A stretch of DNA of 40,542 bases. It comes from Deltaproteobacteria bacterium (lineage in GTDB: Bacteria > Desulfobacterota > BSN033 > UBA1163). Under the pieces are notes generated by a model. The model ran no database searches. It saw only the letters and a program-made list of their open reading frames with translations, and was not told the origin of the DNA. The position numbers and the translations under genes were made by a program. Location of the stretch: assembly GCA_037441725.1 (NCBI GenBank), contig JBBIRT010000004.1:9908-50449 (forward strand), written 5' to 3'. Below are positions 9,770 to 25,175 of the stretch, in pieces (position 1 is the stretch's first letter; every line of letters starts with the position of its first letter).

Positions 9770-9824
9770 ATTCATCATTCGATTTTTCTTCCAGTTTTTG
9801 GTATAAATATTTTTGGGTGTAGAG

Positions 9825-11189
9825 ATGGAAAAGGCAAAGATCCTTGTGGTGGATGATGAAGCTCCCATATGCGAGATGATTAAAAGAGGTCTTTCTCATC
9901 TCGGGGAGTATGAGGTAGATATTGCTCATAATGGCTTCGAGGCGATCGAAAAGATTGAGAAAGAGGTCTTCGATTTGGTGTTGACAGATATAAAGATGCC
10001 TGAAATGGACGGACTCGAACTTTTAAAAAATATTAAAGGGACAAGGCCGGAGGTGATGGTAATCCTGATGACGGCTTACGGGTCGATTGAGATGGCTGTC
10101 GAAGCCATGAAGATCGGAGCAAACGACTTTATTACCAAACCCATTGACTTAAATGAACTTATGATCCATATTTCCAAGGCCCAAAAGGAGAGCCTTCTAA
10201 TCAGGGAGAATCGCCTTCTACGAATGGAGGTGAGAAAAAAATTTGAATTTAACAATATTATTGGGAAGAGTAAAAAGATGCAGGAAGTCTTTTCACTGAT
10301 TGAAAGGGTTGCTCCGGGAAACAGCACAGTGGTGATCTATGGTGGAAGCGGAACAGGCAAAGAGTTAGTTGCCAAGGCGATCCATTATAACAGTCCAAGG
10401 GCAGATCGGCCTTTTATCCCCTTTAATTGCGGGGCTATTCCTGAGACATTAGTTGAAAGTGAACTCTTTGGGCATACGAAAGGAGCTTTCACTGGCGCGG
10501 TCCAGGCTAAGAAAGGGCTGTTCGAAGAGGCTAATGGAGGGACTCTCTTTTTAGATGAGATCTCCACAATCCTCCCCTCAGTCCAGGTAAAACTTTTAAG
10601 GGTGCTTCAGGAAAAGGAATTGATGAAAGTGGGAAGTACGGAGAGAATAAAGATTGACGTCCGGATGATTGCCGCTACCAATGAGAATTTGGAAGAGAGT
10701 GTGAAGAATGGTAGATTTAGGGAAGATCTTTTCTATCGTCTTCATGTCTTTCCCATCTTTCTTCCTGAGCTCAAAGATCGGAAGGAGGATATCCCATTGC
10801 TTGCCTATCACTTCCTTGATCGGTATTCAAAGGAAGCACAAAAGGATATTAAAGGAATTTCAAAAAAGGCGATGAAACTCCTACTTGAATATGATTGGCC
10901 AGGATATGTCAGAGAATTTGAGTATGCCATCGAAAGGGCGGTCATCATGGCAGACCAGGACTATTTGATGCCTAATGACCTTCCGAGGGATCTGATTGAG
11001 GGGTTTTCAGGGTTGATTAAAAAAGGGGTTAGACATCGGAAGTCTCTTGAAGATATCAAATCTGAATATATTAGAGAAGTACTGAAAGAAGTTGGAGGAA
11101 ATAAGAAGGTTGCCTCAGAAATCTTAAAGGTGAACCCAAGAACCCTCTACCGTTTTGAGAAAAAGAGTCTCTCTAATGAATTATCATAA
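9825..11189 (+). CDS. Sigma54-dependent response regulator (NtrC/AtoC family)
   Basis: Receiver domain (ILVVDDE, DIKMP), AAA+ domain (GTGKE, GAFTGA, LFLDEI, FREDLFYRL) and Fis-type HTH. ATG at 9825 chosen over TTG at 9813. Confidence 0.95.
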   Translation: MEKAKILVVDDEAPICEMIKRGLSHLGEYEVDIAHNGFEAIEKIEKEVFDLVLTDIKMPEMDGLELLKNIKGTRPEVMVILMTAYGSIEMAVEAMKIGANDFITKPIDLNELMIHISKAQKESLLIRENRLLRMEVRKKFEFNNIIGKSKKMQEVFSLIERVAPGNSTVVIYGGSGTGKELVAKAIHYNSPRADRPFIPFNCGAIPETLVESELFGHTKGAFTGAVQAKKGLFEEANGGTLFLDEISTILPSVQVKLLRVLQEKELMKVGSTERIKIDVRMIAATNENLEESVKNGRFREDLFYRLHVFPIFLPELKDRKEDIPLLAYHFLDRYSKEAQKDIKGISKKAMKLLLEYDWPGYVREFEYAIERAVIMADQDYLMPNDLPRDLIEGFSGLIKKGVRHRKSLEDIKSEYIREVLKEVGGNKKVASEILKVNPRTLYRFEKKSLSNELS

Positions 11190-11434: not shown

Positions 11435-11899
11435 ATGATGATGAAGATGGTAAAAGCCCTGGTATTTTCAATACTCATTTTCTTGGTGATTCAGGGTGTT
11501 GGTTTGGCGAGAAACTCAGCAACGGTAATGGTTTCGGCAACTGTGGTGGCAAGAGTAAGTCATTCGATTACCCATCAGGAAAAAACGATTACTATTACAA
11601 AGGGAGATATTGAAAAAGGATACGTTGAGATTCCTTCGGCCATGATCCTTCAGATCAAGACCAACCAAAGAAATGGTTATGTTTTATGGTTTGAAGGAGG
11701 AAGTGAGCTTTTTAAAGAAATTTTGGTCATTGAGAAAGGAAGGGTTATCGTCCTTCCCCCTTCAGGGGGATTCATTCATCAACCCTATTCAGGAAGTCCT
11801 GTAGAAATCAAGGAACTCTCTTTTAGATTTAAACTTAAAGAGGATACCCATCCTGGATATTACCCATTCCCCTTCGTAGTGAAAGCCTTCCCCCTCTAA
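11435..11899 (+). CDS. Secreted beta-rich hypothetical protein (possible pilin-like/Ig-like subunit)
   Basis: Signal peptide (…GVGLA) followed by SATVMVSATV and alternating beta-strand patterns. The fold assignment is inference. Confidence 0.6.
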   Translation: MMMKMVKALVFSILIFLVIQGVGLARNSATVMVSATVVARVSHSITHQEKTITITKGDIEKGYVEIPSAMILQIKTNQRNGYVLWFEGGSELFKEILVIEKGRVIVLPPSGGFIHQPYSGSPVEIKELSFRFKLKEDTHPGYYPFPFVVKAFPL

Positions 11900-11999
11900 T
11901 TGAACCAACCTAATCATACATTAACTTAATTTTACGATAAGGCGTTAGAAAAAAATTGACATCTATTGTGAAGTATGATAATGCAATAAGAGTCGAGAT

Positions 12000-12767
12000 A
12001 TGAATCCTGAAGAGATTTCAAGAAAACAACTGGATAATCAGGAATTTTTCAAGCTTCGGCAGGTGACAGAGAAGATCAGCCATGTCTTAAGTAAACGACT
12101 GGCAAATCATTTGGATATTTTAAGGCCTCTCTTTATTCCAAGAAGGCTTTTAGGAACCTATGTAAAGAGTGCAGTAATGGAAGAGGTCCCAAGGTCTGAG
12201 AAGGCCTTTGCCGATCTCCAGGATCTTTTTGGAACCGTTTGTGAAAAACCTTTTGGACTCCCGAGGAAACTCCAACCCCCCCTTCCTCCTATTTCAAATC
12301 AATTAGAGATGACCCCCTTTCAATATCCCCTCCACATCATAGGATCAGGAGACAAGACCATTCACGTGACCTCTCCTACCCGATGGATTCTTTCCTATCG
12401 AAGCGAATGTTCAATCAACCGTTTAAAAGCAATGGTCTCTGGAACTGAACCACGTCAACCCGATGAAATGAGGCAGGCCCTGATCAATCATCTGTCCCTT
12501 GTTGTTCTACTCAGACATGTCCCCACCCTCACCCAGTTGCTTGAAGATCTACGTTATCAGGTCGAGATCAGAGAGCTTAAAGAGTTAGGAAATCTTCCTG
12601 TGGTGGTATTGAAATCACCCGTTCAAACCTTTCTCCCCCCAGACGATTTTATTCTTCAGGTAACACAACTTTCAGGGGTTCCAGCATTTCAGGAGATTAT
12701 TGATCTTGAGGCAGTTGAAAATATTTCAGATTCCCTCAAAGAGACTTTGAGAAGGCTTATCGATTAA
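12000..12767 (+). CDS. Hypothetical cytoplasmic protein convergent with the sheath-like gene
   Basis: 255-aa ORF with no signal peptide and no motif I can name. Confidence 0.7.
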   Translation: MNPEEISRKQLDNQEFFKLRQVTEKISHVLSKRLANHLDILRPLFIPRRLLGTYVKSAVMEEVPRSEKAFADLQDLFGTVCEKPFGLPRKLQPPLPPISNQLEMTPFQYPLHIIGSGDKTIHVTSPTRWILSYRSECSINRLKAMVSGTEPRQPDEMRQALINHLSLVVLLRHVPTLTQLLEDLRYQVEIRELKELGNLPVVVLKSPVQTFLPPDDFILQVTQLSGVPAFQEIIDLEAVENISDSLKETLRRLID

Positions 12768-12783
12768 CCCTTCTGGTCACTCC

Positions 12784-14352
12784 TCACCAACTCAATTCAA
12801 ATTCTACCCGTTCTCCTGAATGTAAGATTTGATGGGAGGGTTCAACTGAGATTCTTATGGTGGCAGGTTGATTCGGTTTGGGTTGGGAAACCGAGATCTG
12901 GAATTCTTTCGGAGTGAGGTGACCTGACCTCTCCCAAAAGAGAGTAAAAGCCTTTCTTAAATTCGCCTCAAGGAGATCAGGGGCAAGATCTCGTTCGAGA
13001 TGATCCTTACACCAAAAAAGGAATTGAGCGATTCTGGAGAGAAAAAGTTGGTAACTCAAAGAACTGCCTGCAACATTGACTTCCAGAGGGATAAATGCTG
13101 AGTCCTTATTTGGAAAAGAAACCAATGGGATGATTCCTCCCCGGATCAATTGATCGATCCTATCATCACTCAAGAGGGTTTCTGTGGGGATATTTTCTTC
13201 CTTAATTGTATTGAGGGCTAGGTTCTCCAGTCGGATGGTTTGCCATTCGGTAAATCGAGTTGACCATCCTGTTTTATGAAAACTTTTCCCAATAAGACTT
13301 CCTATGGCCCAAACCGGACTTAGCCACAAATTTTCTGATTCCTCGAAGTAAATCCATTTAGGTTTATTGTCGGGACCATATGGATATCGGCTCAGAAATC
13401 GATTACAGGTTATAGCCATCCATCTTGCAGCAGGAGTCTTGCTCAAATGACGCCACTTAGCAAAGTTAGATTCCTCGAGAACGTGAGGGAGGTAGGCCAA
13501 TTTTTTTAGATCCTGCCAGGTATCGATATAGAAAAACTTAGGGGTGATCCAGCAAATGGATGGAACCATGAGGGTCTCTGAAAAATGGGCAATTTTCTCA
13601 AGAAGATCAAGACTTCTTGGACTATTATCAAATGGCAGGTCAATGAGGAGGAGAGAGGGAAGATTTTCAATCAAATCGACCGTGAGATGATCCAATGTCT
13701 CTTCAAGGGTGTCGAGGGAGGTAGGGACGATTTCAAGTTTTAGTTCTTCATCAGCTCCCCCTTCTTTGATGAAAAATCTCAGTCCTTGCCAGGTGGACTC
13801 CAGATTTCTAAATTCCTCATTGGAAAAGATGATTCTTAGGATTTGACGAAGGATTGAATCGATTTGAATCATAAAGGATTGGGTTTCCTCAGGAGAGGAT
13901 GAGTCTTCCTCTGGTACGGCAACCATCTTTAGGATGTCATCAATCACTCTCGAGGATGGAGAAGCTGTTTTTGGTTTGGAAGGTTCGTACATGATTTGAA
14001 ATGGGAAATCAGGCCATTCCTTGAGTCGATGATAAACCTCTTTTTCAGAAAGGCCTCCTTTTCTTGAATCTTCAACAAATCTCCTGGCCTCCAGGATGTT
14101 TTTAAGAAAAGGGGTCTCTTCCAGGAGACGATCAGGTTGAAAATCTTTCAACCGATGGAAATGAACGATTAATGAACCGGAGGGGCAAAGATGCTTGGGA
14201 ATGGAAATTTCGATCGACAATCCAAGGTCAACCATGATCTGATCGATGTTGCTTTTATCAACAGGAATGGGTGGATGGGACCAAGGGTTTGTGATTCGAG
14301 TGTTGAAAGGGGCCAAGGCTAAGACTTTGAAAGGCATAAAAGGAATCTGCAT
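12784..14352 (-). CDS. Contractile-sheath-like protein: apparent TssB(VipA)-TssC(VipB) fusion
   Basis: Residues ~1-95 resemble TssB (PFKVLALAPF, VDKSNIDQIM, FHRLKDFQPDRLLEETPFLKNILEARR). The rest resembles TssC (IDSILRQILRIIFSNEEFRNLESTWQGLRFFI, FAKWRHL, RFLSRYPYG, SFHKTGW, IPTETLLSD, GIIPLV, LSYQLFLSRIAQFL). GGAG RBS. Confidence 0.8.
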   Translation of the reverse strand: MQIPFMPFKVLALAPFNTRITNPWSHPPIPVDKSNIDQIMVDLGLSIEISIPKHLCPSGSLIVHFHRLKDFQPDRLLEETPFLKNILEARRFVEDSRKGGLSEKEVYHRLKEWPDFPFQIMYEPSKPKTASPSSRVIDDILKMVAVPEEDSSSPEETQSFMIQIDSILRQILRIIFSNEEFRNLESTWQGLRFFIKEGGADEELKLEIVPTSLDTLEETLDHLTVDLIENLPSLLLIDLPFDNSPRSLDLLEKIAHFSETLMVPSICWITPKFFYIDTWQDLKKLAYLPHVLEESNFAKWRHLSKTPAARWMAITCNRFLSRYPYGPDNKPKWIYFEESENLWLSPVWAIGSLIGKSFHKTGWSTRFTEWQTIRLENLALNTIKEENIPTETLLSDDRIDQLIRGGIIPLVSFPNKDSAFIPLEVNVAGSSLSYQLFLSRIAQFLFWCKDHLERDLAPDLLEANLRKAFTLFWERSGHLTPKEFQISVSQPKPNQPATIRISVEPSHQILHSGERVEFELSW

Positions 14353-14380
14353 CTTTAGACTCCTTTGAATTTGTATAAGG

Positions 14381-15268
14381 TTAGCGATCTATGATCTTTT
14401 TAAAAACCGACTTTAATCCCTTTGGCTCCTTCTCCTTCGAGTCCTCCTTGCGGACCTCCTTCTTGATTTCAGAGGATCTGACAAATTCTCCCATCGGAGC
14501 CTCTTGCACCTCAGCCAAACGGCCTTCGCCAAGGAAACGGAAGGTAGGCCCTCGAGGAGTTAAAGCAATTTCATCATTGGGCTTGAGGGAGGCCTGGACA
14601 ACGATTGGGACTCGATTGATCTGGACTAACCTCTGACCTGTCAGGTCTTTTATCCAGTATTGATTCTGGAAGAAAAAGATCTGCGCCTGCTGATCAAAAA
14701 GGGCAGGATGATCAATGATAAAATCGCATTTTAATCCTTTCCCAATGGTCACGGGGAGTTCTTTATAAGACCGAAGGGTAGGGCCATATTGGATCACCAG
14801 GGGAGCCTTTACCGGTTGGACTGCAACTTCTTGCGTCTCTACTCTTATGGGTTCAACCTGTAGGGGTTTTTCTACAGGGGGTCTTTTAGGCTCTCCCTTA
14901 GGGGTTTCGGGTTTTAAGGGTGTAATCACTTCCTCTTCTTTGACTTCTTTTACCTCGGTTAAGAAACTGACCTTAGGACCTCCTTCTGAAAATTCGAGAA
15001 CATCACCGTTTTTTAAGTAGATTTCCTTTACCCTCTTTCCATTGACAAAGGTGCCATTGGTGCTATGATCAATTAATTTGAATTGATTTCCCTCCCGTGT
15101 TATTTCGGCATGTTTTCGAGAAATACTGGTGAGGTTGGGAGGGAAATGGAGATGGCAGGTTGGATGGCGACCGATCGAAATGATCGGATCGGTAAATTCT
15201 TGGATTTCTCCTTTCATCGGTCCAAGAATATGAACAAGCTGAATAACAATGACAGGTGGGCGTCTCAT
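14381..15268 (-). CDS. Double-FHA-domain protein
   Basis: FHA1 has canonical IGR, ISRKHA and STNGTFVNG motifs; Pro/Lys/Glu-rich linker; degenerate second FHA (TIGKG...IKDL...QIN). Start set to ATG 15268 because the ORF-track start (15499) overlaps the divergent phosphatase. Confidence 0.85.
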   Translation of the reverse strand: MRRPPVIVIQLVHILGPMKGEIQEFTDPIISIGRHPTCHLHFPPNLTSISRKHAEITREGNQFKLIDHSTNGTFVNGKRVKEIYLKNGDVLEFSEGGPKVSFLTEVKEVKEEEVITPLKPETPKGEPKRPPVEKPLQVEPIRVETQEVAVQPVKAPLVIQYGPTLRSYKELPVTIGKGLKCDFIIDHPALFDQQAQIFFFQNQYWIKDLTGQRLVQINRVPIVVQASLKPNDEIALTPRGPTFRFLGEGRLAEVQEAPMGEFVRSSEIKKEVRKEDSKEKEPKGLKSVFKKIIDR

Positions 15269-15281
15269 TTTTCTGATCTTA

Positions 15282-15347
15282 ATTATACCTAAAAGTTCTT
15301 CTGGGTCAAGAAAATAATTGCTCAATGAGGGATGATTTTTGTATAAT
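15282..15347. promoter_or_regulatory. Back-to-back sigma70-type promoters between the FHA and PP2C genes
   Basis: Minus strand: TTGACC (15309-15304), 16-bp spacer, TATAAT (15287-15282). Plus strand: TTGCTC (15318-15323), 18-bp spacer, TATAAT (15342-15347). Confidence 0.6.
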
Positions 15348-15352
15348 AAGCC

Positions 15353-16087
15353 ATGTTCAAAATTATCTCTTATGGTAAAACTGATCCGGGTCTGAAACGA
15401 ACCAATAATGAAGATGCCTTTATTGTAAAACCCGAGATGAATCTTTTTGTTGTGGCCGATGGCATGGGCGGAGCGGCGGCAGGAGAAGTGGCCAGTCAAT
15501 TCTTTGTCGAAACGACGTTACAGATTTTCTCCAAACCCCATGGAGAATCCGAACAAGAGATCCTAAGATTGGTTCAAGAATCCTTCAGCCAGGCCAACGA
15601 AAGGATTCTTAGGCATTCCATCGAGAATCCTCATCACCAGGGAATGGGATGTACCGCAGAACTTATGGCCTTTTCTCACCAGCATTATGTTTTGGGCCAT
15701 GTGGGGGATAGTCGTAGCTATCTCTATCGAAAAGGACAATTGAGGCAGATGACGCATGATCACTCTTTGATTCAAGAACAGGTGGATCAGGGGATGATTA
15801 CACCCGATGAAGCAAAGAGGCATTCCCTTCGGAACATTATTCTCAGGGCAGTAGGTACCCAAGAAACCCTTGCTGTTGATCTGATTCGAGGGAAGGCTCA
15901 ATTAGGAGATCTCTTTCTTCTTTGTTCGGATGGTTTAACCGATATGATCGATGATCTCTTGATTCAGGAAGTCCTCTCTTTGCCATTGAATCTTATTCAA
16001 AAAGGAGAGAAGCTCATCCAGTTAGCCAAATCCAAAGGGGGTTTTGATAATATTACGGTCATCTTGTGTGAGATCATTTCTTTATGA
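15353..16087 (+). CDS. PP2C/PPM-family Ser/Thr phosphatase (Stp1/PppA-like)
   Basis: RTNNEDA, VADGMGG, GMGCT, HVGDSR, DHS, LCSDGL and GGFDNITV motifs. Confidence 0.95.
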   Translation: MFKIISYGKTDPGLKRTNNEDAFIVKPEMNLFVVADGMGGAAAGEVASQFFVETTLQIFSKPHGESEQEILRLVQESFSQANERILRHSIENPHHQGMGCTAELMAFSHQHYVLGHVGDSRSYLYRKGQLRQMTHDHSLIQEQVDQGMITPDEAKRHSLRNIILRAVGTQETLAVDLIRGKAQLGDLFLLCSDGLTDMIDDLLIQEVLSLPLNLIQKGEKLIQLAKSKGGFDNITVILCEIISL

Positions 16088-17019
16088 AAAAAGCCAATGC
16101 CTTTTCATTGCTTATCGCTTCTATTCTCCTAATCCTCTCTTCACTCTTTGCAGAAGAGGGAGGGGTTTCAAGGCTCTATCCTTTACCTATGATTGAGGTA
16201 GAATGGGTGGTGATGGATTGGTTGATTCACTCCGGATTTGAAGTTTCAAAGATCCCTATAGAAGGTGACCAGATTTTATTGTTGGGAAAGAAGGAAAGTG
16301 AAAAGTGGGAGCTCATTTTGAAACCTCATTCTCCCCTTGCTTCCATCCTGCAGATCAAATATACAGTGAGTGGAGGTCCTCATCGAGAGAAACTTCAGGA
16401 ATTATGGAGCCACCTTGAAAGATATTCTCATGGTCCCCCTATTGAACAGGAAACTTTAGCTCAAGAAATCCCATCAAAGGTTTCTTCCCAGAGTGCCTCA
16501 GTCGTCTGTATTAAAGCCAAATTGGATCAAGGAGAGATTCAGTTTTCAGGTTTCGTCATTGATCCCCAGGGATTCATCATTTCTACGGCTCATGATCTCA
16601 AGTCTCCTCAAGAGATATTGGTCACCCTCCATGATGGGCAAAGGTTTAAGGGAGAGATCGTTAAGAATGATTCCCATAGAGATTTGGTCTTAATTCACAT
16701 TCCCTCTGCTCTTCATTCCTTTATTCCGATAAAAGGAAAAAGATTCCTGAAAGATGGAGAAAAGGTATATATGATCGGTTATCCAAATGGTCACCAAGGA
16801 GTCATTCACTCAGGCCTGATTGATGGTTCCCTCCGGTGGGTCGGTCTTCTCCCTTTATGGAAGGTGAAAATGGAGACCCTACCTGGAAGCAGTGGCAGCC
16901 CTGTGTTTGACGCCAAGGGAAATCTGGTGGCCATGGTGAAGGGAAGACTCCGAGGGAGCGATACGGTAGGTTTTTTGATCCCTTTAGAGACCATCCTTGA
17001 ATTTTTAAAGGAGAAATAG
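16084..17019 (+). CDS. Secreted trypsin-like serine protease with an N-terminal unknown domain, no PDZ
   Basis: Signal peptide; catalytic triad motifs TAH, RDL and PGSSGSP; start overlaps the phosphatase stop (ATGA). Confidence 0.85.
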   Translation: MKKANAFSLLIASILLILSSLFAEEGGVSRLYPLPMIEVEWVVMDWLIHSGFEVSKIPIEGDQILLLGKKESEKWELILKPHSPLASILQIKYTVSGGPHREKLQELWSHLERYSHGPPIEQETLAQEIPSKVSSQSASVVCIKAKLDQGEIQFSGFVIDPQGFIISTAHDLKSPQEILVTLHDGQRFKGEIVKNDSHRDLVLIHIPSALHSFIPIKGKRFLKDGEKVYMIGYPNGHQGVIHSGLIDGSLRWVGLLPLWKVKMETLPGSSGSPVFDAKGNLVAMVKGRLRGSDTVGFLIPLETILEFLKEK

Positions 17020-17021
17020 TC

Positions 17022-18215
17022 ATGATGACTTATGGTCGTTATCAGATTATAGAGGAATTAGGGAAAGGGTCAATGGGGATTGTGTATAAGGCCCATGATC
17101 CTCAAATTGATCGACTGGTGGCCTTAAAAGTTCTCCGCCAAGATCGACTGACCAGTGATGATTTTATCCATCGATTCCTAAAAGAGGCTAAGGCCATTGG
17201 CAGGCTTTCCCATCCCCATATTGTGACGGTCTACGATGTAGGAGAGGATCACGGGACGATCTATATCGCCATGGAGTTCTTAGAAGGAAGACCCTTAAAT
17301 CAGGTGATGGGAGAAAGAAGGTTAGGTCTCAGGGAAATCATTGAAATAGGAATTCAGGCAGCCGAAACTCTCGATCATGCCCATCAGAAAGGGATTGTTC
17401 ATAGGGATGTCAAGCCCAGCAATATTCTCCTTCAAACCTCTGGGCAGATTAAGATCACAGATTTTGGTATTGCCCATATTGAAGATCCCTCTGCTTCTGT
17501 CCAAACCCAAGCAGGTGAGATCCTTGGTACCCCTGCCTATATGTCCCCCGAACAGGTGATGAGCCGTCCGGTGGATGGTCGTTCTGATCTATTCTCTTTG
17601 GGGATCATCTTATATGAGCTGGCGACTGGCAAGAGGCCATTTGGGGGTGAAAACCTGGCAGCCATCTTTAACTCTATTACACAGGAGATTCCATCCCCAC
17701 CTGTAAGGATTAATCCAGAAATCCCTTTAGAGTTCTCACAGATCATCCTAAAGTGTTTGAATAAAAAACAGGAAGAACGTTTTCAATCAGGGAAAACATT
17801 GGCAGAAGCTTTGAAGACCACCCTTCAGAAAATGGAGCCAGTGGCCGTTGAAACAGAGGCATCAAAGAGATCGAAAAACATGTTTTTATTCATCATCGGG
17901 ATCATTCTTCTCTTAGGGATTGGAGGGATACTCTCTTACCTTTACATCCTTCCAAAGGAGAGGGTTCCAGTGCAAAATGAAATTATCAAAACAGGAGCTC
18001 TTCATGTGGAAAGCAACCCAGCAGGAGCTCAGGTTTTTATCGATGGCACATTTAAAGGGAAGGCACCCATCAAATTGGAGCTTTCAGCAGGAAAGCATGA
18101 AGTTCGATTAACTCTTCCGAATCATTTTGACTGGGAGGCCCAGGTAGACCTCAAAGAGAATGAGGAAACCCCTTTATTGATCCATTTGTTTCCAGAGACT
18201 GATGAAAAACCTTAA
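17022..18215 (+). CDS. Hanks-type Ser/Thr protein kinase with TM helix and extracytoplasmic PEGA domain
   Basis: GKGSMG, VALK, HRDVKPSN, DFGIA, GTPAYMSPE; hydrophobic TM segment; PEGA-like LHVESNPAGAQVFIDG...G.HEVRL. Confidence 0.93.
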   Translation: MMTYGRYQIIEELGKGSMGIVYKAHDPQIDRLVALKVLRQDRLTSDDFIHRFLKEAKAIGRLSHPHIVTVYDVGEDHGTIYIAMEFLEGRPLNQVMGERRLGLREIIEIGIQAAETLDHAHQKGIVHRDVKPSNILLQTSGQIKITDFGIAHIEDPSASVQTQAGEILGTPAYMSPEQVMSRPVDGRSDLFSLGIILYELATGKRPFGGENLAAIFNSITQEIPSPPVRINPEIPLEFSQIILKCLNKKQEERFQSGKTLAEALKTTLQKMEPVAVETEASKRSKNMFLFIIGIILLLGIGGILSYLYILPKERVPVQNEIIKTGALHVESNPAGAQVFIDGTFKGKAPIKLELSAGKHEVRLTLPNHFDWEAQVDLKENEETPLLIHLFPETDEKP

Positions 18216-18234
18216 ATTAGAGGGAGGGATAAAC

Positions 18235-20190
18235 ATGGTTAAATTCATTCAACATTCTATTCTTTTAATTCTCACGGGAATTTTCTTTCTATTTGCTGGG
18301 AATAGCGTCCAAGCCCAGATCTCTTCAGGACAGATGGCTCCAATATTTTCTTTAAAAGATTTTAAGGGTCAAACCTATGATCTGTCTCAGATGAGAGAAC
18401 AACCTATGCTCATCCTCTACTTTTTTGATGTAGAATCAAGACCGAGTCAGGAGGGGCTATTGAGCCTCAATCAATTGATGAGGCAATATAAGGGGGCCAA
18501 TTTCATTGTATGGGCCATTACACTTTCTCCCAAGGAAAAAGTCACAAAATTCATTGAAGCCTCTGGTATCACTTTTCCTGTTCTTCTGGATCTGAGTAAA
18601 GTCAGCGATCTTTATCAGGCAAGGCAGATATTACCCACTGTTTGCACCCTTGGCCCCGGGCTTAAGGTTTTAGATTACTTTCAGGGGGGAGGGAAGACCA
18701 CTGAGACCATGCTGATAAGACTTGCAGAAAGGCAACTCCAGAGAAAGCAGACCCAATTGGCCAAAGCGATCAGTGAGGAGGTGTCCAAAAAGAATCCTCA
18801 AAACATCAAGGCCAAGACCATTAAAGGCTATGCGGCGTTAAAAGAGGATCGTCTGAGTGAAGCGGAGGAGGTGTTTAAAGAAGTTTCAAGGAAAGGTGGG
18901 GAGGGGGAGGTTTTGGGAAAAGAAGGGTTGGCCTCGGTCTATGCCAAGAAGGGACAAACAGATAAAGCCCTTCAGCTCGCGAAAGAGGTAGAAGAAAAAT
19001 CTCCAGATCGGGCATACATTCATGTGATTAAAGGGGATGCCCTTTATGCTCAGGATAAAAAGAAGGAGGCAGAAGAAGAGTATCAAAAGGCGGTTCAGAA
19101 AAAGATTGCTGAACCTTACCAGGAGGCTCAACGGTATAATCAGCTTGGTCGTCTTTATGCCAGTTCAGGGAAATATCAAAAGGCCCGAGAGCTTTATGAT
19201 CAAGCCTTAACGATAGATCCTTATTATATTGAGGGAACAACTAATAAAGGAATCACTTATGAGAAGGAAGGCCATTGGGATAAGGCCCTGGAGGCTTACC
19301 GACAAGCTTTGGCTCTGGATAAAGGAGATACGTTTGCTGCAATCCTGGCCAAAAAGGCAGAGGAGATGTTAGAGATTCAAAAGGATATCAAGCGCAAGGA
19401 GAGAATCGATCAATTAATTAAAGAGCTGGCTGCCCGATATCAGGGACAAAAGAAGGAAGAGGCTAAAAAGGCAGCAGATACCTGGACCTCTCCACCGATG
19501 ATCCTAACCTTTGTTGATTTTCAAGAGAAAGGGGGCCTCAACGAGAGGGATGGTTTCTCAACGGTCCTTATGTCACAATTGGCTGACCACCTTAATGCAT
19601 CTGGAAGGGTCAAGGTGGTTGAGAGGGTTTTGATTGAGAGACTTCTTGAGGAGTTGAATCTTGGTTCATCAGAGCTTGCCAATCCAGAAACTGCCCTAAA
19701 ATTAGGAAAAGTATTAGCCGCCAGATTGATTGGGACAGGCTCTCTCTATTATCTTCCCCAAGGAACACTTTTAAACCTTAGGCTCATCGATACAGAGACC
19801 TCAGCCATTCCTCAAGTGATGACCCGTCAGATTTCTCCTCAAGGCTCTCTCGAAAAGGAGCTATTTCATTTGAATCGGGAGATCCTGAGAACCATCGTTA
19901 AAAAATATCCTCTCCATGGGTATGTGGTCAAGACAATGGATGATCAGGTGATGCTCAATATCGGGTCAAAGCAAGGAGTCGTTTCCGGGACAAGGTTTGA
20001 AGTCATTGAGGACCAGGCTCCAGTCACTTATAAAGGAAAGTCCCTTCAGTCTTCTCTCAAAATCATTGCCCAATTGGAAGTGGTACAGGTGGAGCCGGAT
20101 CTCTGCTATGCAAAGGTTCTTAATAAAGAGAGATCTTTAAAAACCGATGACAAGGTACAAGAAAAGATGGAGGAGATATCCCTGAAATGA
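18235..20190 (+). CDS. Exported multidomain protein: redoxin-like (no CxxC) + TPR repeats + CsgG/TolB-N-like domain + FlgT-C-like beta domain
   Basis: Signal peptide; GQMAPIFSLKD...FPVLLD redoxin fold; TPR helices (YNQLGRLY...YDQALTIDP); VVER...EELNLG...LGKVLAAR; VMLNIGSKQGV..GTRFEV. Start 18235 follows a GGAGGG RBS. Confidence 0.75.
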   Translation: MVKFIQHSILLILTGIFFLFAGNSVQAQISSGQMAPIFSLKDFKGQTYDLSQMREQPMLILYFFDVESRPSQEGLLSLNQLMRQYKGANFIVWAITLSPKEKVTKFIEASGITFPVLLDLSKVSDLYQARQILPTVCTLGPGLKVLDYFQGGGKTTETMLIRLAERQLQRKQTQLAKAISEEVSKKNPQNIKAKTIKGYAALKEDRLSEAEEVFKEVSRKGGEGEVLGKEGLASVYAKKGQTDKALQLAKEVEEKSPDRAYIHVIKGDALYAQDKKKEAEEEYQKAVQKKIAEPYQEAQRYNQLGRLYASSGKYQKARELYDQALTIDPYYIEGTTNKGITYEKEGHWDKALEAYRQALALDKGDTFAAILAKKAEEMLEIQKDIKRKERIDQLIKELAARYQGQKKEEAKKAADTWTSPPMILTFVDFQEKGGLNERDGFSTVLMSQLADHLNASGRVKVVERVLIERLLEELNLGSSELANPETALKLGKVLAARLIGTGSLYYLPQGTLLNLRLIDTETSAIPQVMTRQISPQGSLEKELFHLNREILRTIVKKYPLHGYVVKTMDDQVMLNIGSKQGVVSGTRFEVIEDQAPVTYKGKSLQSSLKIIAQLEVVQVEPDLCYAKVLNKERSLKTDDKVQEKMEEISLK

Positions 20191-20693
20191 AACGGCAAAG
20201 GAGAAGTCCTATCTTTCTTAAAATTCTTATTCTCACTCCAATCCTTCTCTTTTGGGTTTCTTGCACCTCAACACCCGAATTGAAAGGGAGAAGCCTAACC
20301 ATTGCGGTTTGGGATTTAGATGATCTAAGCCCTTCCTCATTGGTTAGGCCCTCATTGGGGGAGATCTTATCGGGTGAGATTATTGAAACCCTGAAGAGGA
20401 AAGGAGAATATACAGTAGTTGAGAGAGAACGTCTACTCTTAGCCCTCGAGGAGCTCCGTCTTGGGACGACCAAGCTTGTCGATGAGGAGACCCGTCTCAA
20501 GCTCGGTAAAATGTTAGGGGCTCGATTCATGATATTTGGGGGTTACCAAATCATTGGAGATCAGGTGCGTGTTGACCTAAGAATGGTGGAAGTAGAAACT
20601 GGAAAGGTGAGAAAGGCTGTTGAGAAGATCACCTCTGCCACAGATTTGCAAGGATGGATCATCGCTGTTCAAAAGGCAGCAGAGGCGTTTTAA
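20187..20693 (+). CDS. CsgG/HfaB-like lipoprotein
   Basis: Basic N-terminus, hydrophobic stretch and WVSC lipobox-like site; TIAVWDL, VVERERL..ALEELRLG, LGKMLGA and LRMVEVETG motifs. Confidence 0.75.
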   Translation: MKRQRRSPIFLKILILTPILLFWVSCTSTPELKGRSLTIAVWDLDDLSPSSLVRPSLGEILSGEIIETLKRKGEYTVVERERLLLALEELRLGTTKLVDEETRLKLGKMLGARFMIFGGYQIIGDQVRVDLRMVEVETGKVRKAVEKITSATDLQGWIIAVQKAAEAF

Positions 20694-20700
20694 TCTATTT

Positions 20701-21957
20701 CTAAAATCTGCTGGTTAAAAGCAGTCCTCCAGAGAATCCTTTATAGTGGCGTTCACTGAAGTTTTGGGAACTGATGAGATAGGGGTAACTTCTTTGTCCA
20801 TCATGCATGATAAAACCTTTAAAATAGATCTCTCCGTTAAGGGAGGGGAGGATTTTTCGAGTTGCTCCAAAACCGAGGGAATATCTTTCCCTGCGGCCCT
20901 GATGATTTTGTGAGAAGGAAGGGTAATCATTGGAGGTAATGAAGAGAGTCTGAAAGATAGATTTAATGGTTGTTTTTTCGTCAAAAAGATATTTCAAAGC
21001 GAATTCACCCACCCATTCATCTCCATGACTATTCTTTCTCTCCGTGATAAGGATAGGAAGGCTGTATAATTCGACATACCATCCATATCCTGGATAATAA
21101 GACCAATCCTCTCTATAGTCATATTTGTTTTTTTCCCTAAAAATTCCTTTCAGGGAGAGATCAAAATCCCATTTTTTTCTATTGTAATTTAGTCCCAGAC
21201 CAATGAGCCAGAGTTCGCCTTCTTTTAAGGTATGTCGATACAACTCATTCGTTCCCCAAATGTCTCGATTGGATTCTTTCCATTTTGACCCTTTATAATA
21301 AGCGTAATTGCCAAAGATGCGACACCGCCAGGGAGGGAAGATATCATAATGAATCTCTGCGGTTAAACTGAAGATATCCCCTGGGGAATAATCCTTAATC
21401 TGAATGGTTGAATAATATTCTTCTGTTAAATATCCAAAATCGAATTTTCCTCGCCAGAGATAGCCTGCTCCCAGACCCAAAACCCCTCTCCTCCATTCCT
21501 TGGCCAGGGAGAGAGTGGGGTTGATATTGAAGCCCTCCCCAAAGGTGTTGATTGAAATCAAGTAAGGATCCATTATGAGAATTTGATCTTTAGCCTTCAG
21601 GTTGGTTTTTCCGGTAGGAAGATTAAGATCAAGTCCTATAAGGAAATCGATGGGAAGTTTCCCAATGATTTCATAAGCGAGATTGACTTTGGAATCGAGA
21701 ACATGACCGAGTGATCGATCCGATCCTGTATAGGGATCCTTATGAGTATAAGCATACCCAGTGAGCAAACCCAAAGAGAAATCTTTGTATTGGGCCTCCA
21801 GTGAGAGAGGGAGATAGGATTGCCTTGCCTTATTCCCTTTAGTATCTTCCCACCAGTCGAAATTTATTCCTGAATGCACTTTAAAATCGATGGCCCAAAC
21901 CCTCTCCATCGAAATCATCAGTGTAAGGGATGTTAAAATCCAAATCCATTTTTTCAT
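20701..21957 (-). CDS. Putative outer-membrane beta-barrel protein (paralog B)
   Basis: Signal peptide, aromatic-rich amphipathic strands, LNLPTGK motif, C-terminal Phe (GLLLTSRF); paralog of 22940-24169. Confidence 0.72.
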   Translation of the reverse strand: MKKWIWILTSLTLMISMERVWAIDFKVHSGINFDWWEDTKGNKARQSYLPLSLEAQYKDFSLGLLTGYAYTHKDPYTGSDRSLGHVLDSKVNLAYEIIGKLPIDFLIGLDLNLPTGKTNLKAKDQILIMDPYLISINTFGEGFNINPTLSLAKEWRRGVLGLGAGYLWRGKFDFGYLTEEYYSTIQIKDYSPGDIFSLTAEIHYDIFPPWRCRIFGNYAYYKGSKWKESNRDIWGTNELYRHTLKEGELWLIGLGLNYNRKKWDFDLSLKGIFREKNKYDYREDWSYYPGYGWYVELYSLPILITERKNSHGDEWVGEFALKYLFDEKTTIKSIFQTLFITSNDYPSFSQNHQGRRERYSLGFGATRKILPSLNGEIYFKGFIMHDGQRSYPYLISSQNFSERHYKGFSGGLLLTSRF

Positions 21958-22005
21958 AAAGATTCTTCCTCAATCATCGTTATTAATTATTTAGATTACC
22001 ATTCA

Positions 22006-22902
22006 TCATCGTTGAATTTTTGATGGTTGACGGTCTGGTGTTAGGGTCCTTTTTGTCGCATCTTCTGGAGCCAATTGGTCTGTAAGCGATGTTCTCTCCT
22101 TGATGGAGCGGAGCACCGACCGGCTTCTCCCTCTTCCTGCCAAAAGACCGAGTGTATATAATTCCTCTAAGGCCCCTCTTGCCACACAAATCCTTGGATC
22201 CTCCCTTAATGCCTTTTCATAATATTCGGCAGCTTTTTCATAGTTTCCTTGATCGCTCGCATCGATCCCCATGAATAAGGCCATTAAAGCTTTGTGATTG
22301 GTTGAACACGGCCTCCTTAATTCTTCATTTTCCATTGGGGTGGGCTCAATCTTAAAAAATTTAATCATCTCAAAGAGAAGGTCTTTTTCAATTTTAAATA
22401 AATCTTCCATCTCCCCTTTTACCATGGGTTGAGCAATCATTTTTTGTGTTCCGACATCCAGAAGGTTTGCCTGAATCAAAATTGAACCCTCTTTGATCTA
22501 TCCTCCGATTATCAAACGAGCCCCTAAAAGCCTTCCCACTCTTGGAGTGGTTTGAGAATCAACCATTCCAGAGGCCCCCAATCCCATCTCTTCAACCAGA
22601 GCTTGGATTCTAATTCTCTCCACCACTTGAAGTTCTCTGATTTTAAAAAGATCTGTCAAGAGCATTAAAGCCAAGCCTTTCTGAAGGGGAATGAATTCTG
22701 ATCTTCCTGTTTTATTTTCGAAATAGAGAACGGCAACCGTATTTCTTGCCTCCACAGGGCGAAGGGCCTTTTCTTCTTTTAGTACTTTTTGGGCCCACAT
22801 TCTAACATCGGAAGTGACCACCTCCCCAGCCCAAGTTGTGCCCATCATCAGAAAAAAGGCCAGACAGAAACTCCATGCTTTCAAGATCATCCTGTTTCTC
22901 AT
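22006..22902 (-). pseudogene. CsgG-like + TPR exported protein interrupted by one in-frame TAG (nonsense mutation, sequencing error or readthrough)
   Basis: ORFs 22498-22926 and 22006-22479 share a frame: ...LGARLIIGG-TAG-IKEGSILIQANLLD... Joined, they align along the whole intact paralog 24258-25175. Start uncertain (ATG 22902 chosen). Confidence 0.75.
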
Positions 22903-22939
22903 CCCTCTTTCCCTATAAATAGACAATATTTAACAATCT

Positions 22940-24169
22940 TTAAAACTTTCCTGTTAAAATAAGTCCTGCTGAAAAACCTCTATAATTCCGACCTTTCTTA
23001 AACTCGGGGTAATTCATCTTATCCGTATGCATCAGAAACCCTTTGGTATAAATCTCTCCTTCCAGAAATGGGAGGAGTCCTCTTGTCAATCCAACTCCCA
23101 AAGAGCCCTTCTCCTTGTGACCAATAAATTTGGATGAATTTGAAGGATACTCGTTTCTGGTAATCAAGAGGGCTTGAAGATAAGTTTTTAAAGTCGTTTT
23201 ATCATCTAAAAATAATTTTAAAAAAAGATCCCCTATCCATTCATCTCCATGACTATTTCGAGTTTCAGTTGAAATGGGTAAGCGTTTCCATTGTTCATAG
23301 AGTTGAAGGGGAGGCATATATCCGCCAGGGGATTCTCTTTTGAATTTACTTTTATCCCTAAAGATGTATCGTGCTGTTAATCCAGCCTCCCATTTTTTAT
23401 CGTTATAATTCAATCCAAAACCAGCAGAGAAAAGGGGTCCTTCCTGATAAAACGTGATATCATCCACTTCATCCTTACCATACCAGGTATAAAGACCGAA
23501 GATTCTTGCATACCAATCGGTTAAAAAATCATAACGGATCTCAGCATTCACACTCACCAACTCTCCTGGATCGTAATCCTTTGTATAAAAGGCTTGGTAC
23601 CCTGCCATGGGTCCCATGTCATGAACCCACTCGAAGACTTTGTTCTGATAATCGTATTTTCCCCTCCAGGCATACCCAGCCCCTAAACCAATTGTGAAAT
23701 CTCCAAACTCTTTAGCCAAATTTAGGGTAGGATTTATATCAAACCCTGCCCCAAAATTCGTCACGGAAACGAGATCAGGATCCATGATCAGCCGTCTCTC
23801 CCTTTGGCTGAGATCGCTTTTACCGGTGGGAAGATTAAAATCCAGACCCATGAGAATATCCATGGGTAACTTGTCCAGAATTTCATAAGAAAGATTCACT
23901 TTGGTATCGAGGAAATGGGTGAATGACAGGTTCGAGGATCTTCTCGGATCATAGCTAGTGTAGGCCTCTCCTGTAAGTATCTTCAAAAAGAAGTCGTGAT
24001 AATGGAGCTCTACACTCAAGGGGGCATAAAGTTGAATGCCTCGATCATGGGTATTATCTCTCCATCCATCATAGTGAATCCCTATCGGGGCTCTGAAATG
24101 AATTTCTGCCGCTTGACTTACTCCTAAGAAGATGATCATAAACATAATGATTAAGAAACCACGTTTCAT
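22940..24169 (-). CDS. Putative outer-membrane beta-barrel protein (paralog A)
   Basis: Signal peptide, LDFNLPTGK, NSHGDEW, C-terminal GLILTGKF; alternative start at 24190. Confidence 0.72.
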   Translation of the reverse strand: MKRGFLIIMFMIIFLGVSQAAEIHFRAPIGIHYDGWRDNTHDRGIQLYAPLSVELHYHDFFLKILTGEAYTSYDPRRSSNLSFTHFLDTKVNLSYEILDKLPMDILMGLDFNLPTGKSDLSQRERRLIMDPDLVSVTNFGAGFDINPTLNLAKEFGDFTIGLGAGYAWRGKYDYQNKVFEWVHDMGPMAGYQAFYTKDYDPGELVSVNAEIRYDFLTDWYARIFGLYTWYGKDEVDDITFYQEGPLFSAGFGLNYNDKKWEAGLTARYIFRDKSKFKRESPGGYMPPLQLYEQWKRLPISTETRNSHGDEWIGDLFLKLFLDDKTTLKTYLQALLITRNEYPSNSSKFIGHKEKGSLGVGLTRGLLPFLEGEIYTKGFLMHTDKMNYPEFKKGRNYRGFSAGLILTGKF

Positions 24170-24257
24170 CTTAAATGGACCTCTCTTCATTGGTATGAGA
24201 GAAAAAAATGATTCCCTAAATAAATCCTGTTATGCCCTCCCATCCATGAAATATGCC

Positions 24258-25175
24258 TTAGGGGTAGTAGGTTTGTATGCCTTCTGCTGGGATCGTTGAA
24301 GGTTTTCTTTCTCTTTTTGTTGAATCTTCTGGGGTAATTTGATCCGTGACTGAACTCCTGTCTCTCAAGGACCTTAATACCTCACGACTCCTCTTTCTTT
24401 CAGTAAAAAGGCGGAGATCTCTTAACTCCTGTAATGCCTCCCGAGCAACCATTATATTAGGATCCAGGGATAATGCCTTCTCATAATAATCTGCTGCCTT
24501 CTTATAATCACCGCGATCACTCGATTCTATCCCACGAGATAAGGCCATAAGGGCATTGAGATTGGTTGAAAAAGGCTTTCGGAGCTCTCTTTCTTGCTCA
24601 GGAGTCAACTCTATTTTTAAAACTCGAACAATTTGAAAAAGAAGATCCTTCTCCATTTGGAATAGATCTGAAAGATAACCTTCTGTCATTGGTTGTCCAA
24701 GAATATTTTGGGTCGTCACATCCAAAGGATAGGATTGAATCTGAATCCTTTCCTCCCTCCCTTGATTTATATTTCCTCCTATCATCCAATGGACTCCCAA
24801 AAACCTACCCACCCGTGGTGCTGTATCCTGATCTATCAATCCCGAGACACCAAGACCCAACTCCTCCATTAGAGCCTGGAACTTCACTCTTTCTAAGACC
24901 TGAAATTCCTTCAATTTGGATAGGTCGGTTGTGAGCATTAACGATATCCCTTTTTGTAAGGGGTCTAATTCTTTTTGTCCAGTTTTATTATGAAAATAGG
25001 GAACGGCTAAAGTATTTCGGGCTGGTGTGGTCTTGAGGGTCTTTTCTTCTTGGATTATTTTCTGGGCCCAAACCCTTATGTCTTTTGTTACCACTTCTCT
25101 TGCATGGACCTGAAACAGAGAGGTGGCTCCAATCAAACTGAAGCCTAATAAGCTTAAAAACCATTTCCTTTTCAT
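24258..25175 (-). CDS. Exported CsgG/TolB-N-like domain protein with C-terminal TPR
   Basis: Signal peptide; TLAVPYFHN, LQKGISLMLTTDL, VLER..FQALMEELGLG; TPR GDYKKAADYYEKALSLDP. Confidence 0.75.
   Translation of the reverse strand: MKRKWFLSLLGFSLIGATSLFQVHAREVVTKDIRVWAQKIIQEEKTLKTTPARNTLAVPYFHNKTGQKELDPLQKGISLMLTTDLSKLKEFQVLERVKFQALMEELGLGVSGLIDQDTAPRVGRFLGVHWMIGGNINQGREERIQIQSYPLDVTTQNILGQPMTEGYLSDLFQMEKDLLFQIVRVLKIELTPEQERELRKPFSTNLNALMALSRGIESSDRGDYKKAADYYEKALSLDPNIMVAREALQELRDLRLFTERKRSREVLRSLRDRSSVTDQITPEDSTKRERKPSTIPAEGIQTYYP

Follow-up and report, generated by a model that had tools for sequence, protein, structure and literature searches.

What does a gene for a contractile sheath-like protein do among metabolic genes, when its closest neighbours encode a putative phosphorylation switch and a series of envelope proteins? 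The question is raised by a 40,542-nucleotide stretch of a Deltaproteobacteria bacterium genome (assembly GCA_037441725.1, contig JBBIRT010000004.1, positions 9,908 to 50,449), here called the window, which lies on C4, one of the 234 contigs of an assembly that is 92.8% complete. Between positions 12000 and 25175 of the window, a compact block of genes encodes a single-chain protein resembling TssB and TssC, the two sheath subunits of type VI secretion systems (T6SS), and this protein is referred to as the fusion. A double-FHA protein, a PP2C phosphatase, a Hanks-type kinase with a PEGA domain and several exported and outer-membrane proteins are encoded beside it. A preliminary description had presented the block as a candidate undescribed system, the output of which would be either a T6SS encoded elsewhere or a repurposed sheath-only polymer. 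On four further contigs, family searches and Pfam scans revealed a complete canonical T6SS in the same genome, which removes the sheath-only polymer and supports the other option, and the block is likely to be an accessory, probably regulatory, locus of that T6SS.

The conserved core of the locus is the pair formed by the double-FHA protein and the fusion, with the PP2C phosphatase and the membrane-bound PEGA kinase around it. The remaining parts are confined to the lineage: a protease, a protein joining redoxin, TPR and CsgG-like regions, CsgG-like lipoproteins and two pairs, each made of a CsgG-like/TPR protein and a barrel. Among 47 fusion loci, all of them in metagenome-assembled genomes and obtained from a scan of one genome per species with neighbours determined by open reading frame (ORF) calling and phmmer, the full block was found again at eight, and its arrangement is therefore not due to chance.

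The canonical T6SS and the distribution of the fusion

The fusion gene (12784-14352, minus strand) encodes 522 aa, with Pfam matches to VipA (PF05591) at residues 7-95 (36.1 bits, gathering threshold 24) and to VipB (PF05943) at residues 234-420 (139.9 bits, gathering threshold 27). It misses the NCBIfam equivalog cut-offs for TssB (TIGR03358, 34 versus 97.25 bits) and TssC (TIGR03355, 127 versus 271.5 bits), and the canonical TssC of the same genome reaches 417 bits on PF05943.

That TssC is encoded on contig C193, together with two Hcp-like ORFs, TssE and TssF. The end of C101 holds a 711-aa protein, a 258-aa protein, TssJ and the N-terminal part of TssK, and C150 the C-terminal part of TssK, TssL, TssM, TagF and TssA. 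C37 contributes TssG, ClpV, VgrG, a TPR protein, PAAR and a Rhs-repeat protein and, further along, a 259-aa protein of a family named cluster 3, a serine/threonine kinase (STK) with TPR, a cyclase, a polysaccharide deacetylase and another TPR protein. TssB was not seen on these four contigs and probably falls in the assembly gap before C193. Within the window, Pfam scans matched no ORF to Hcp, VgrG, TssA/E/F/G/K/J/L/M or ClpV families, so that the absence of T6SS genes applies to the window and not to the genome.

The connection between block and T6SS is more direct in some relatives. G083, which is closely related and has the entire block, encodes a complete T6SS about 10-45 kb downstream on the same contig (TssJ, K, L, M, TagF, TssA, B, C, Hcp, TssE, F, ClpV, VgrG, PAAR and peptidoglycan-binding proteins), and the genes between the two are those which follow the T6SS on C37 of the window genome. 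Block and T6SS share one contig in G080 as well. Where fusion and TssF are found on a common contig, 3.6 to 62 kb separate them in eight genomes and ~4.9 Mb in a ninth (G289). Furthermore, the fusion gene can be part of the T6SS cluster itself: G409 has the order TssE-TssF-TssG-ClpV-fusion-VgrG on one strand with gaps of 5-6 bp, and in G205 the fusion lies a few genes past ClpV in a cluster which also includes TssA, TssB, TssC, TssE and TssF. VgrG is found within 10 kb of the fusion at 8/47 loci.

The same association was observed at the scale of whole genomes. Within the order (55 genomes), the fusion is present in 14 genomes and TssF in 12; all 12 TssF-positive genomes carry the fusion, and the 41 genomes that have no fusion are all TssF-negative. 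Two carriers have no TssF. One of them, G078 (88% complete), encodes canonical TssC and TssK. In the other, G084 (98% complete), family searches of the genome detected no TssF, TssK, canonical TssC, Hcp, TssM N-domain or VgrG, and the fusion is truncated to residues 201-522 and contains a stop. A phylum-wide sample of 401 evenly drawn genomes, for which a completeness of at least 90% was requested, includes 22 carriers and 49 TssF-positive genomes, with TssF in 21/22 carriers against 28/379 non-carriers. None of the 11 genomes in this sample whose TssF scores above 650 bits has the fusion, which implies that it accompanies one T6SS subtype. Finally, TssF is encoded in 38 of the 47 locus genomes and TssK in eight of the other nine, giving 46/47 with either gene, and the sole genome with neither is G084, with its truncated gene.

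The family extends beyond these genomes. A word-indexed search returned 264 relatives at E <= 0.001 among 8000 scored candidates, nearly all of ~520 aa and with both Pfam domains, the named sources being Syntrophaceae, Desulfobacteraceae, Thermodesulfobacteriota and similar metagenome genomes; three of these relatives are listed with PF27141. HMMER over 1.84 billion representatives gave 4470 proteins at E <= 0.001, the weaker of which will include canonical TssC, and 367 at E <= 1e-30. A second class of proteins, of 600-645 aa (P0225, P0236, P0238, P0243 and others), is matched by the fusion profile in two stretches, the best spanning about profile positions 104-159 to 424-520. Judging from these matches, it may be another, longer fused sheath-like family.

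The proposed phosphorylation switch and the envelope module

The double-FHA gene (14381-15268, minus strand, 295 aa) is the most constant neighbour of the fusion, being directly upstream on the same strand at 28/38 loci with at least 1.2 kb of upstream sequence and overlapping it by 4 bp at some of them. In the window the two form an operon, preceded by a putative promoter at 15309-15282 of the minus strand (TTGACC-16-TATAAT, 11/12 consensus matches). The protein has two FHA stretches in Pfam, a Pro-rich linker and a basic tail. Its ORF had been listed as 14381-15499; the gene is confirmed, but the extent is not, as the Met at 15268 is the start indicated by 18 aligned homologs. FHA domain 1 displays the canonical GR / SR.HA / NGT signature, which marks phospho-threonine binding in FHA domains, and domain 2 is degenerate, with GK / DQ.AQ / LTG at the signature places.

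Divergent from the FHA gene, the PP2C Ser/Thr phosphatase gene (15353-16087, plus strand; NCBIfam Stp1/IreP 253 bits, cut-off 230) opens a run of plus-strand genes. It is followed by an exported trypsin-like serine protease (16084-17019, plus strand; Trypsin_2 79 bits), whose N-terminal hydrophobic signal-like segment was read from the sequence, and by the Hanks-type Ser/Thr kinase (17022-18215, plus strand; Pkinase 193 bits), with one transmembrane segment and a C-terminal PEGA domain (60 bits, residues 325-389). Homologs of the phosphatase occur at 20/47 loci (18/34 of those with at least 3 kb upstream), homologs of the kinase above 400 bits at 14/47 and of the protease at 8/47.

The double-FHA protein, PP2C and PEGA kinase would fit as the Fha, PppA and PpkA equivalents of this T6SS subtype. 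The analogy with PpkA/PppA/Fha drawn in the preliminary description is upheld by domain content, but the FHA protein remains below the cut-off of the TagH model (TIGR03354, 64 bits versus 120.25, on the FHA domain only) and has no T6SS_FHA_C. TagH/Fha proteins above the NCBIfam cut-off are found in 5/49 TssF-positive genomes, all five without the fusion (0/21 carriers versus 5/28 non-carriers), and the best FHA matches in carriers include the fusion-adjacent gene. Moreover, both the window genome's own T6SS cluster (three short contigs) and the contiguous one of G083 have TagF and neither kinase nor phosphatase. The equivalence is weakly supported, being based on small numbers of related genomes.

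Double-FHA proteins of about 300-350 aa are also encoded in T6SS-positive genomes without the fusion (G482:C28, G374:C40, G440:C227, G450:C6), in G482 and G374 on the same contig as TssF, and the FHA protein is thus not exclusive to the fusion. A separate observation concerns a protein of ~258 aa with no confident family match, encoded upstream of TssJ in the three genomes read (L062:7791-10671, L065:775-3733, L059:5713-6510) and preceded by a 711-744-aa protein in two of the three. The G083 copy has a sub-threshold T6SS_FHA_C match, and the ~258-aa protein may correspond to the C-terminal domain of Fha without an FHA domain. In NCBIfam, neither of the two proteins upstream of TssJ (711 and 258 aa) had a match, and cluster 3 had none either.

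Downstream of the kinase, the plus-strand run continues with an exported protein which combines AhpC/redoxin, TPR, CsgG-like and FlgT_C regions in Pfam (18202-20190, start probably 18235) and with a small CsgG-like/LpoB-like lipoprotein (20187-20693; CsgG 51 bits, profile 8-97 of 210; LpoB 24 bits). The facing minus-strand operon begins behind a promoter-like site at 25243-25215, predicted from the sequence, with an exported 305-aa CsgG-like/TPR protein (24258-25175; CsgG 41 bits and TPR). It proceeds through barrel-like outer-membrane protein 2 (22940-24190, 416 aa; weak MipA and Phenol_MetA_deg matches below cut-off) and a second CsgG-like/TPR gene (22006-22926), and ends with barrel-like outer-membrane protein 1 (20701-21957, 418 aa; no Pfam match above cut-off). 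Both barrels end in a C-terminal Phe. CsgG matches above cut-off were obtained for four proteins (20187-20693, 22498-22926, 24258-25175 and the redoxin-TPR protein), with best stretches covering only profile positions 8-99 of 210, and were accompanied by weaker LpoB, FlgO and FlgT_C matches and by weak TPR_Slam matches on the TPR parts.

The two barrels are paralogs of ~417 aa with 48% identity, and for barrel 1 the Atlas gave as a lead a Thermodesulfobacteriota cluster, 16% of whose members have Phenol_MetA_deg. Their homologs are found in 10/55 genomes of the order, all of them fusion carriers (10/14 carriers, 0/41 non-carriers), and in seven genomes they lie 7-8 kb from the fusion on the same contig. 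This co-occurrence does not refute the link between sheath/FHA and CsgG-like/barrel genes proposed earlier. The complete envelope module is present at 8/47 loci (L011, 13, 14, 15, 19, 25, 30, 34), the fusions of which are 50-64% identical to that of the window, and other loci within the same range of identity have no module. Homologs of the redoxin-TPR protein and of the small lipoprotein occur at 8/47 loci each, and the 305-aa protein has homologs above 300 bits at 6/47.

From this gene neighbourhood, we propose that the PEGA kinase takes its input from the envelope: periplasmic and outer-membrane proteins of the module would sense a cue there and relay it to the kinase, whose PEGA domain is periplasmic. 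The kinase would then produce a phospho-threonine mark, which the PP2C would remove and the canonical FHA domain 1 would read. Alternatively, the module might be structural, anchoring or opening the envelope for the T6SS membrane complex or exporting a surface lipoprotein, with no signal passing to the kinase. The CsgG-, LpoB-, FlgO- and FlgT_C-like matches, which are to families annotated as envelope lipoproteins or ring components, would suit such a role, as would the TPR_Slam matches, and barrels also occur away from the fusion: in G074 a barrel homolog and TssF are about 20 kb apart on a contig that does not hold the fusion, and G051 encodes an additional copy on a separate contig. On the other hand, the module shares an operon with the kinase (15353 to 20693) and is contiguous with a PEGA-type kinase at seven of the eight loci, the eighth locus being cut short there. 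PEGA-type kinases without the module at seven further loci mean that neither sensing nor structure is compelled, and the sequence is compatible with sensing and building alike. A purely structural role is conceivable, and we consider it rather doubtful.

The sheath-like protomer and its missing segments

If the block serves a T6SS, the part which would act on it is the fusion, and its architecture suggests how it might do so. The AlphaFold2 (AF2) model of the chain (pLDDT 74.6, pTM 0.78, with low confidence at residues 126-157, which form an S/T-rich linker, and at 276-304 and 320-341) matches TssC chains in Foldseek at E about 1e-12. VIA structural alignments to TssC chains (5n8n_B, 5urw, 3j9g, 9n4v) reach Z 19-20 and place model residues ~153-513 on TssC ~61-477; the values for 9n4v_A are Z 19.9, root-mean-square deviation (rmsd) 3.5 and 284 aligned residues, and for 3j9g Z 19.3, rmsd 3.9 and 317 aligned residues. 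Against the single-chain sheaths of the antifeeding prophage (AFP), the Photorhabdus virulence cassette (PVC) and pyocin, Z is about 15-16.6 over model residues 6-512. According to the model, then, the fusion has the sheath protomer fold, with inner and middle domains. The C-terminal strand of the family is conserved and ends in a Trp invariant in the alignment of 18 homologs. The VipB_2 (gp25-like) family PF18945 has no match on the chain, and structural alignments still extend to model residue 512 and TssC ~477.

Profile comparisons with hhalign place fusion residues 4-97 on TssB 28-127 and residues 154-469 on TssC 28/68-430, leaving TssB 1-28, the C-terminal helices of TssB (128-161) and TssC 1-67 with no counterpart. 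The TssB alignments begin at TssB residue 28-29, equal to fusion residue 4-5, so that the N-terminal VipA linker is absent; only 5-6 residues precede the fusion core, and polymerising sheaths are aligned by VIA from residue about 20-25. On the TssC side, structural alignments start at TssC ~57-63, or at ~31-38 in two untrimmed rows (rmsd 8.6-9.1). ClpV recognises the surface domain of the sheath, which consists of the TssC N-terminal segment and the TssB C-terminal helices. The VipA N-terminal linker connects sheath subunits, as stated in PMC5797969.

With linker and TssC N-terminus missing, the protomer could sit on a sheath end or on the baseplate and not hand the linkage on. The FHA protein, on reading the phospho-threonine mark, would control this sheath-like protein, in which the sheath core is kept and the TssB linker and TssC N-terminus are gone. 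Docked on the TssB/C polymer or on the baseplate without propagating, it would act as a nucleator, a cap or a terminator. A more far-reaching and less likely reading makes the fusion the first of a new class of sheath-derived T6SS assembly factors, which would accept but not pass on the linkage and which the FHA protein would recruit or release to start, cap or stop assembly upon a signal from the CsgG-like/TPR/barrel envelope proteins. The direction of signalling, the protein contacts and the cap or nucleator role are what we infer from gene content and fold. Complex prediction for the fusion and the double-FHA protein gave a score of 0.00, run without controls, and counts neither way.

Several observations weigh against an accessory role in the T6SS. 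The block of the window genome does not adjoin the T6SS contigs, 28 T6SS-positive genomes of the phylum sample have no fusion, and the co-occurrence counts overstate the support because the genomes are related and not independent. The switch is not obligatory for the fusion, given the 18/34 loci with PP2C, the 8/47 with the envelope module and the absence of an FHA neighbour in G409. Furthermore, the single-contig 3.18-Mb chromosome of G018 keeps its deacetylase-TPR/LysM-FHA-fusion operon intact, with PilC/PilS after it, and family searches of this chromosome found no TssF, canonical TssC, Hcp, TssM N-domain or VgrG. Its T6SS remnant consists of a 744-aa protein, a 255-aa protein, TssJ and TssK (L028, L064, L065). 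The FHA-fusion pair can therefore persist without a working T6SS, and the state of G018 reflects either a recent loss of the T6SS or an independent function.

If the function were independent, the FHA-fusion pair, alone or together with the envelope module, might be an autonomous phospho-regulated cytoplasmic polymer or scaffold for the cell wall or envelope, sharing only ancestry and genomic islands with the T6SS. The G018 operon beside a mere TssJ/TssK remnant agrees with this, as do the polysaccharide deacetylase and TPR/LysM genes found upstream of the FHA gene on the same strand at six loci and the position of the block among metabolic genes in the window genome. Against it, T6SS core genes are present in 21/22 carriers of the phylum sample and in 46/47 locus genomes, the fusion is embedded in the T6SS clusters of G409 and G205, it has decayed in the sole genome that lost all T6SS genes, and the N-terminal linker required for sheath connectivity is absent from it. 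Autonomy is thus unlikely.

Hard to reconcile with the missing segments is a second, single-chain contractile sheath around Hcp, replacing or mixing with TssB/TssC under conditions set by the kinase: the full protomer fold (residues 6-512 on AFP, PVC and pyocin at Z about 16, TssC at Z 19-20), the conserved C-terminal strand with its invariant Trp and the adjoining ClpV and VgrG genes in G409 would allow it, but the equivalents of TssB 1-28 and of the TssC N-terminus are lacking, every cluster that was read through also holds the canonical TssB/TssC pair, and the chain is below both NCBIfam cut-offs, which makes this reading quite improbable. The fusion gene as a decaying relic was rejected, as 36/47 loci are full-length (query residues 1-8 to 522) and 18 homologs share 66 invariant columns; of the remaining loci, 9/47 are cut by a contig end and 2/47 (L036, L046) have the C-terminal part only.

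Gene models, recurrent neighbours and known systems

ORF listing together with Pfam and NCBIfam scans confirmed the genes of the block, save for corrections of starts and ORFs. The convergent gaps are of 16 bp (12768-12783) and 7 bp (20694-20700), as had been described, and start and stop codons overlap at 16084/16087 and 20187/20190. From 15353 to 20693 the genes are overlapping or near-abutting on one strand, which places envelope genes and kinase in one operon. For the redoxin-TPR gene, the Met at 18235 is the likelier start, because a near-identical strain (public run X1) lacks one nucleotide at 18217, which would shift the frame of a gene starting at 18202; with a start at 18235, the kinase and redoxin-TPR genes would no longer overlap by 14 bp. 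An in-frame TAG (22500-22498, minus strand) divides the second CsgG-like/TPR gene into a 5' ORF with the CsgG match and a 3' ORF with the TPR matches. Contigs of public runs X1 and X4 have C at plus-strand position 22500, where the window has A, and hence read GAG. The reading frame is thus unbroken in these near-identical strains, which makes the break either strain-specific or an assembly error. The X1 contigs are ~99% identical to the window over the block, and runs X2 and X3 gave short matching pieces only.

Three ORFs of 112-136 aa antisense to or inside the PP2C, redoxin-TPR/CsgG-lipoprotein and CsgG-like/TPR genes (15563-15901, minus strand; 20120-20530, minus strand; 24566-24934, plus strand) are probably not genes. 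For an exported 154-aa ORF (11435-11899), Pfam, NCBIfam and PHROGs gave no match, and it is not counted in the block, as no homolog is present at any of the 47 loci. Nine proteins, taken from the block and from the T6SS contigs, likewise had no match in PHROGs.

A Pfam scan of the window confirmed that metabolic or regulatory genes flank both sides, with a thiamine pyrophosphate enzyme and a sigma-54 response regulator on the left and 3-hydroxyacyl-CoA dehydrogenase, a short-chain dehydrogenase/reductase and aldehyde:ferredoxin oxidoreductase on the right. The sigma-54-dependent regulator (9813-11189) lies just left of the block, and in G083 a regulator with 47% identity to it stands with a GAF histidine kinase beside the T6SS cluster; orthology is not claimed at 47% identity only. 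A sigma-54 promoter pattern searched over the block had one match, inside the 154-aa ORF, which equals chance level.

Convergent with the fusion is a gene for a 255-aa protein (12000-12767, plus strand) with no match in Pfam, NCBIfam or PHROGs, an AF2 model of pLDDT 46 and no usable Atlas match. Its homologs are convergent and directly downstream of the fusion at 12/47 loci (11/37 of those with at least 1.2 kb downstream). The 258-aa cluster 3 protein, also without a family, is found at 20/47 loci beside the fusion or the 255-aa gene, and hhalign detected no relation between the two families (probability 0.2). In the window genome, cluster 3 is encoded on a T6SS contig instead (C37:7752-8531, L060), adjoining the STK-TPR kinase, cyclase, polysaccharide deacetylase and TPR genes. 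The neighbourhood analysis of fusion homologs suggested in the preliminary description thus returned the double-FHA gene at 28/38 loci, PP2C at 18/34, the 255-aa gene at 11/37 and the envelope module at 8/47. A further recurrent set consists of VgrG, DUF2169/pentapeptide, pentapeptide, DUF3540 and PAAR-like (PF13665) proteins, with VgrG at eight loci and the others at 6-7 each, within 10 kb of the fusion (L022, L026, L027, L043, L048, L049, L052, L057). Its last member is the 258-aa cluster 3 gene, and the set converges on or flanks the FHA-fusion pair. We take it to resemble vgrG-tagAB-tagB-tagC-tagD of Burkholderia T6SS-5.

Comparison with described systems defines what is new. The fusion has the VipA and VipB domains and the fold in common with TssB/TssC (VipA/VipB, HsiB/HsiC, IglA/IglB) and likewise occurs in T6SS genomes, sometimes inside the cluster. 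However, TssB and TssC are two chains of about 160 and 495 aa, whereas the fusion is one chain of 522 aa with about 20% identity, is additional to the canonical pair where this could be checked and is usually paired with a double-FHA gene. Its one-chain topology recreates that of phage tail, R-pyocin, AFP and PVC sheaths, from which it differs in its 7-13% identity, the absence of a PHROGs match and the loss of their N-terminal arm; scans of the window found no tube, baseplate, spike or terminator genes beside it.

The PpkA/PppA/Fha threonine phosphorylation pathway of T6SS is named in the abstracts of PMC5995506 and PMC6082577. A membrane Hanks kinase, a PP2C, an FHA protein and a TagF-bearing T6SS are common to the block and to PpkA/PppA/Fha with TagF of the Pseudomonas H1-T6SS, Agrobacterium and Serratia, but here the outer kinase domain is PEGA, the FHA domains are two, the genes lie outside the core cluster and the FHA gene is constantly accompanied by that of a sheath-like protein. 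In PpkA, the outer domain is von Willebrand A. TagQRST of the Pseudomonas H1-T6SS, composed of the ATP-binding cassette (ABC) ATPase/permease pair TagT/TagS, the lipoprotein TagQ and the periplasmic TagR, is similar by position only, as exported and outer-membrane proteins are encoded with the kinase. In its place the block has CsgG-like/TPR lipoproteins, barrels, the redoxin-TPR protein and the protease, and no ORF of 11435-25175 matches ABC_tran or a permease family in Pfam (the TagQ and TagR models were not searched). Pfam CsgG matches are shared with the CsgG curli channel, LpoB and FlgO-FlgT, but here they are partial and fused to TPR or redoxin, and unlike curli CsgG the block has separate barrels and no CsgE or CsgF partners. 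Full-text literature searches, with subscription journals and supplements outside their view, returned no fused TssB-TssC paralog or its pairing with a double-FHA protein, and no T6SS with a PEGA kinase, whether or not accompanied by CsgG-like/TPR/barrel proteins. To speak of an undescribed system was an overstatement: the block is a new accessory set of a known one, in which the accessory protein family and the candidate input module are new and the T6SS with its Thr-phosphorylation switch is known.

For genome annotation, the consequence is that relatives of the fusion are labelled 'contractile sheath large subunit', and a genome can seem to hold an extra or orphan T6SS. The start, length limitation and stop of T6SS sheaths are only partly understood, the components known so far being TssA-type caps, TagA and the Fha/PpkA/TagF circuit. 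As a sheath paralog which is conserved, has no linker, is tied to an FHA protein and is found almost only in T6SS carriers, the fusion would be a testable candidate for a sheath-derived cap or nucleator. Moreover, the block adds a candidate module for kinase input that has no relation to TagQRST, from a lineage of uncultured anaerobes on which few studies exist.

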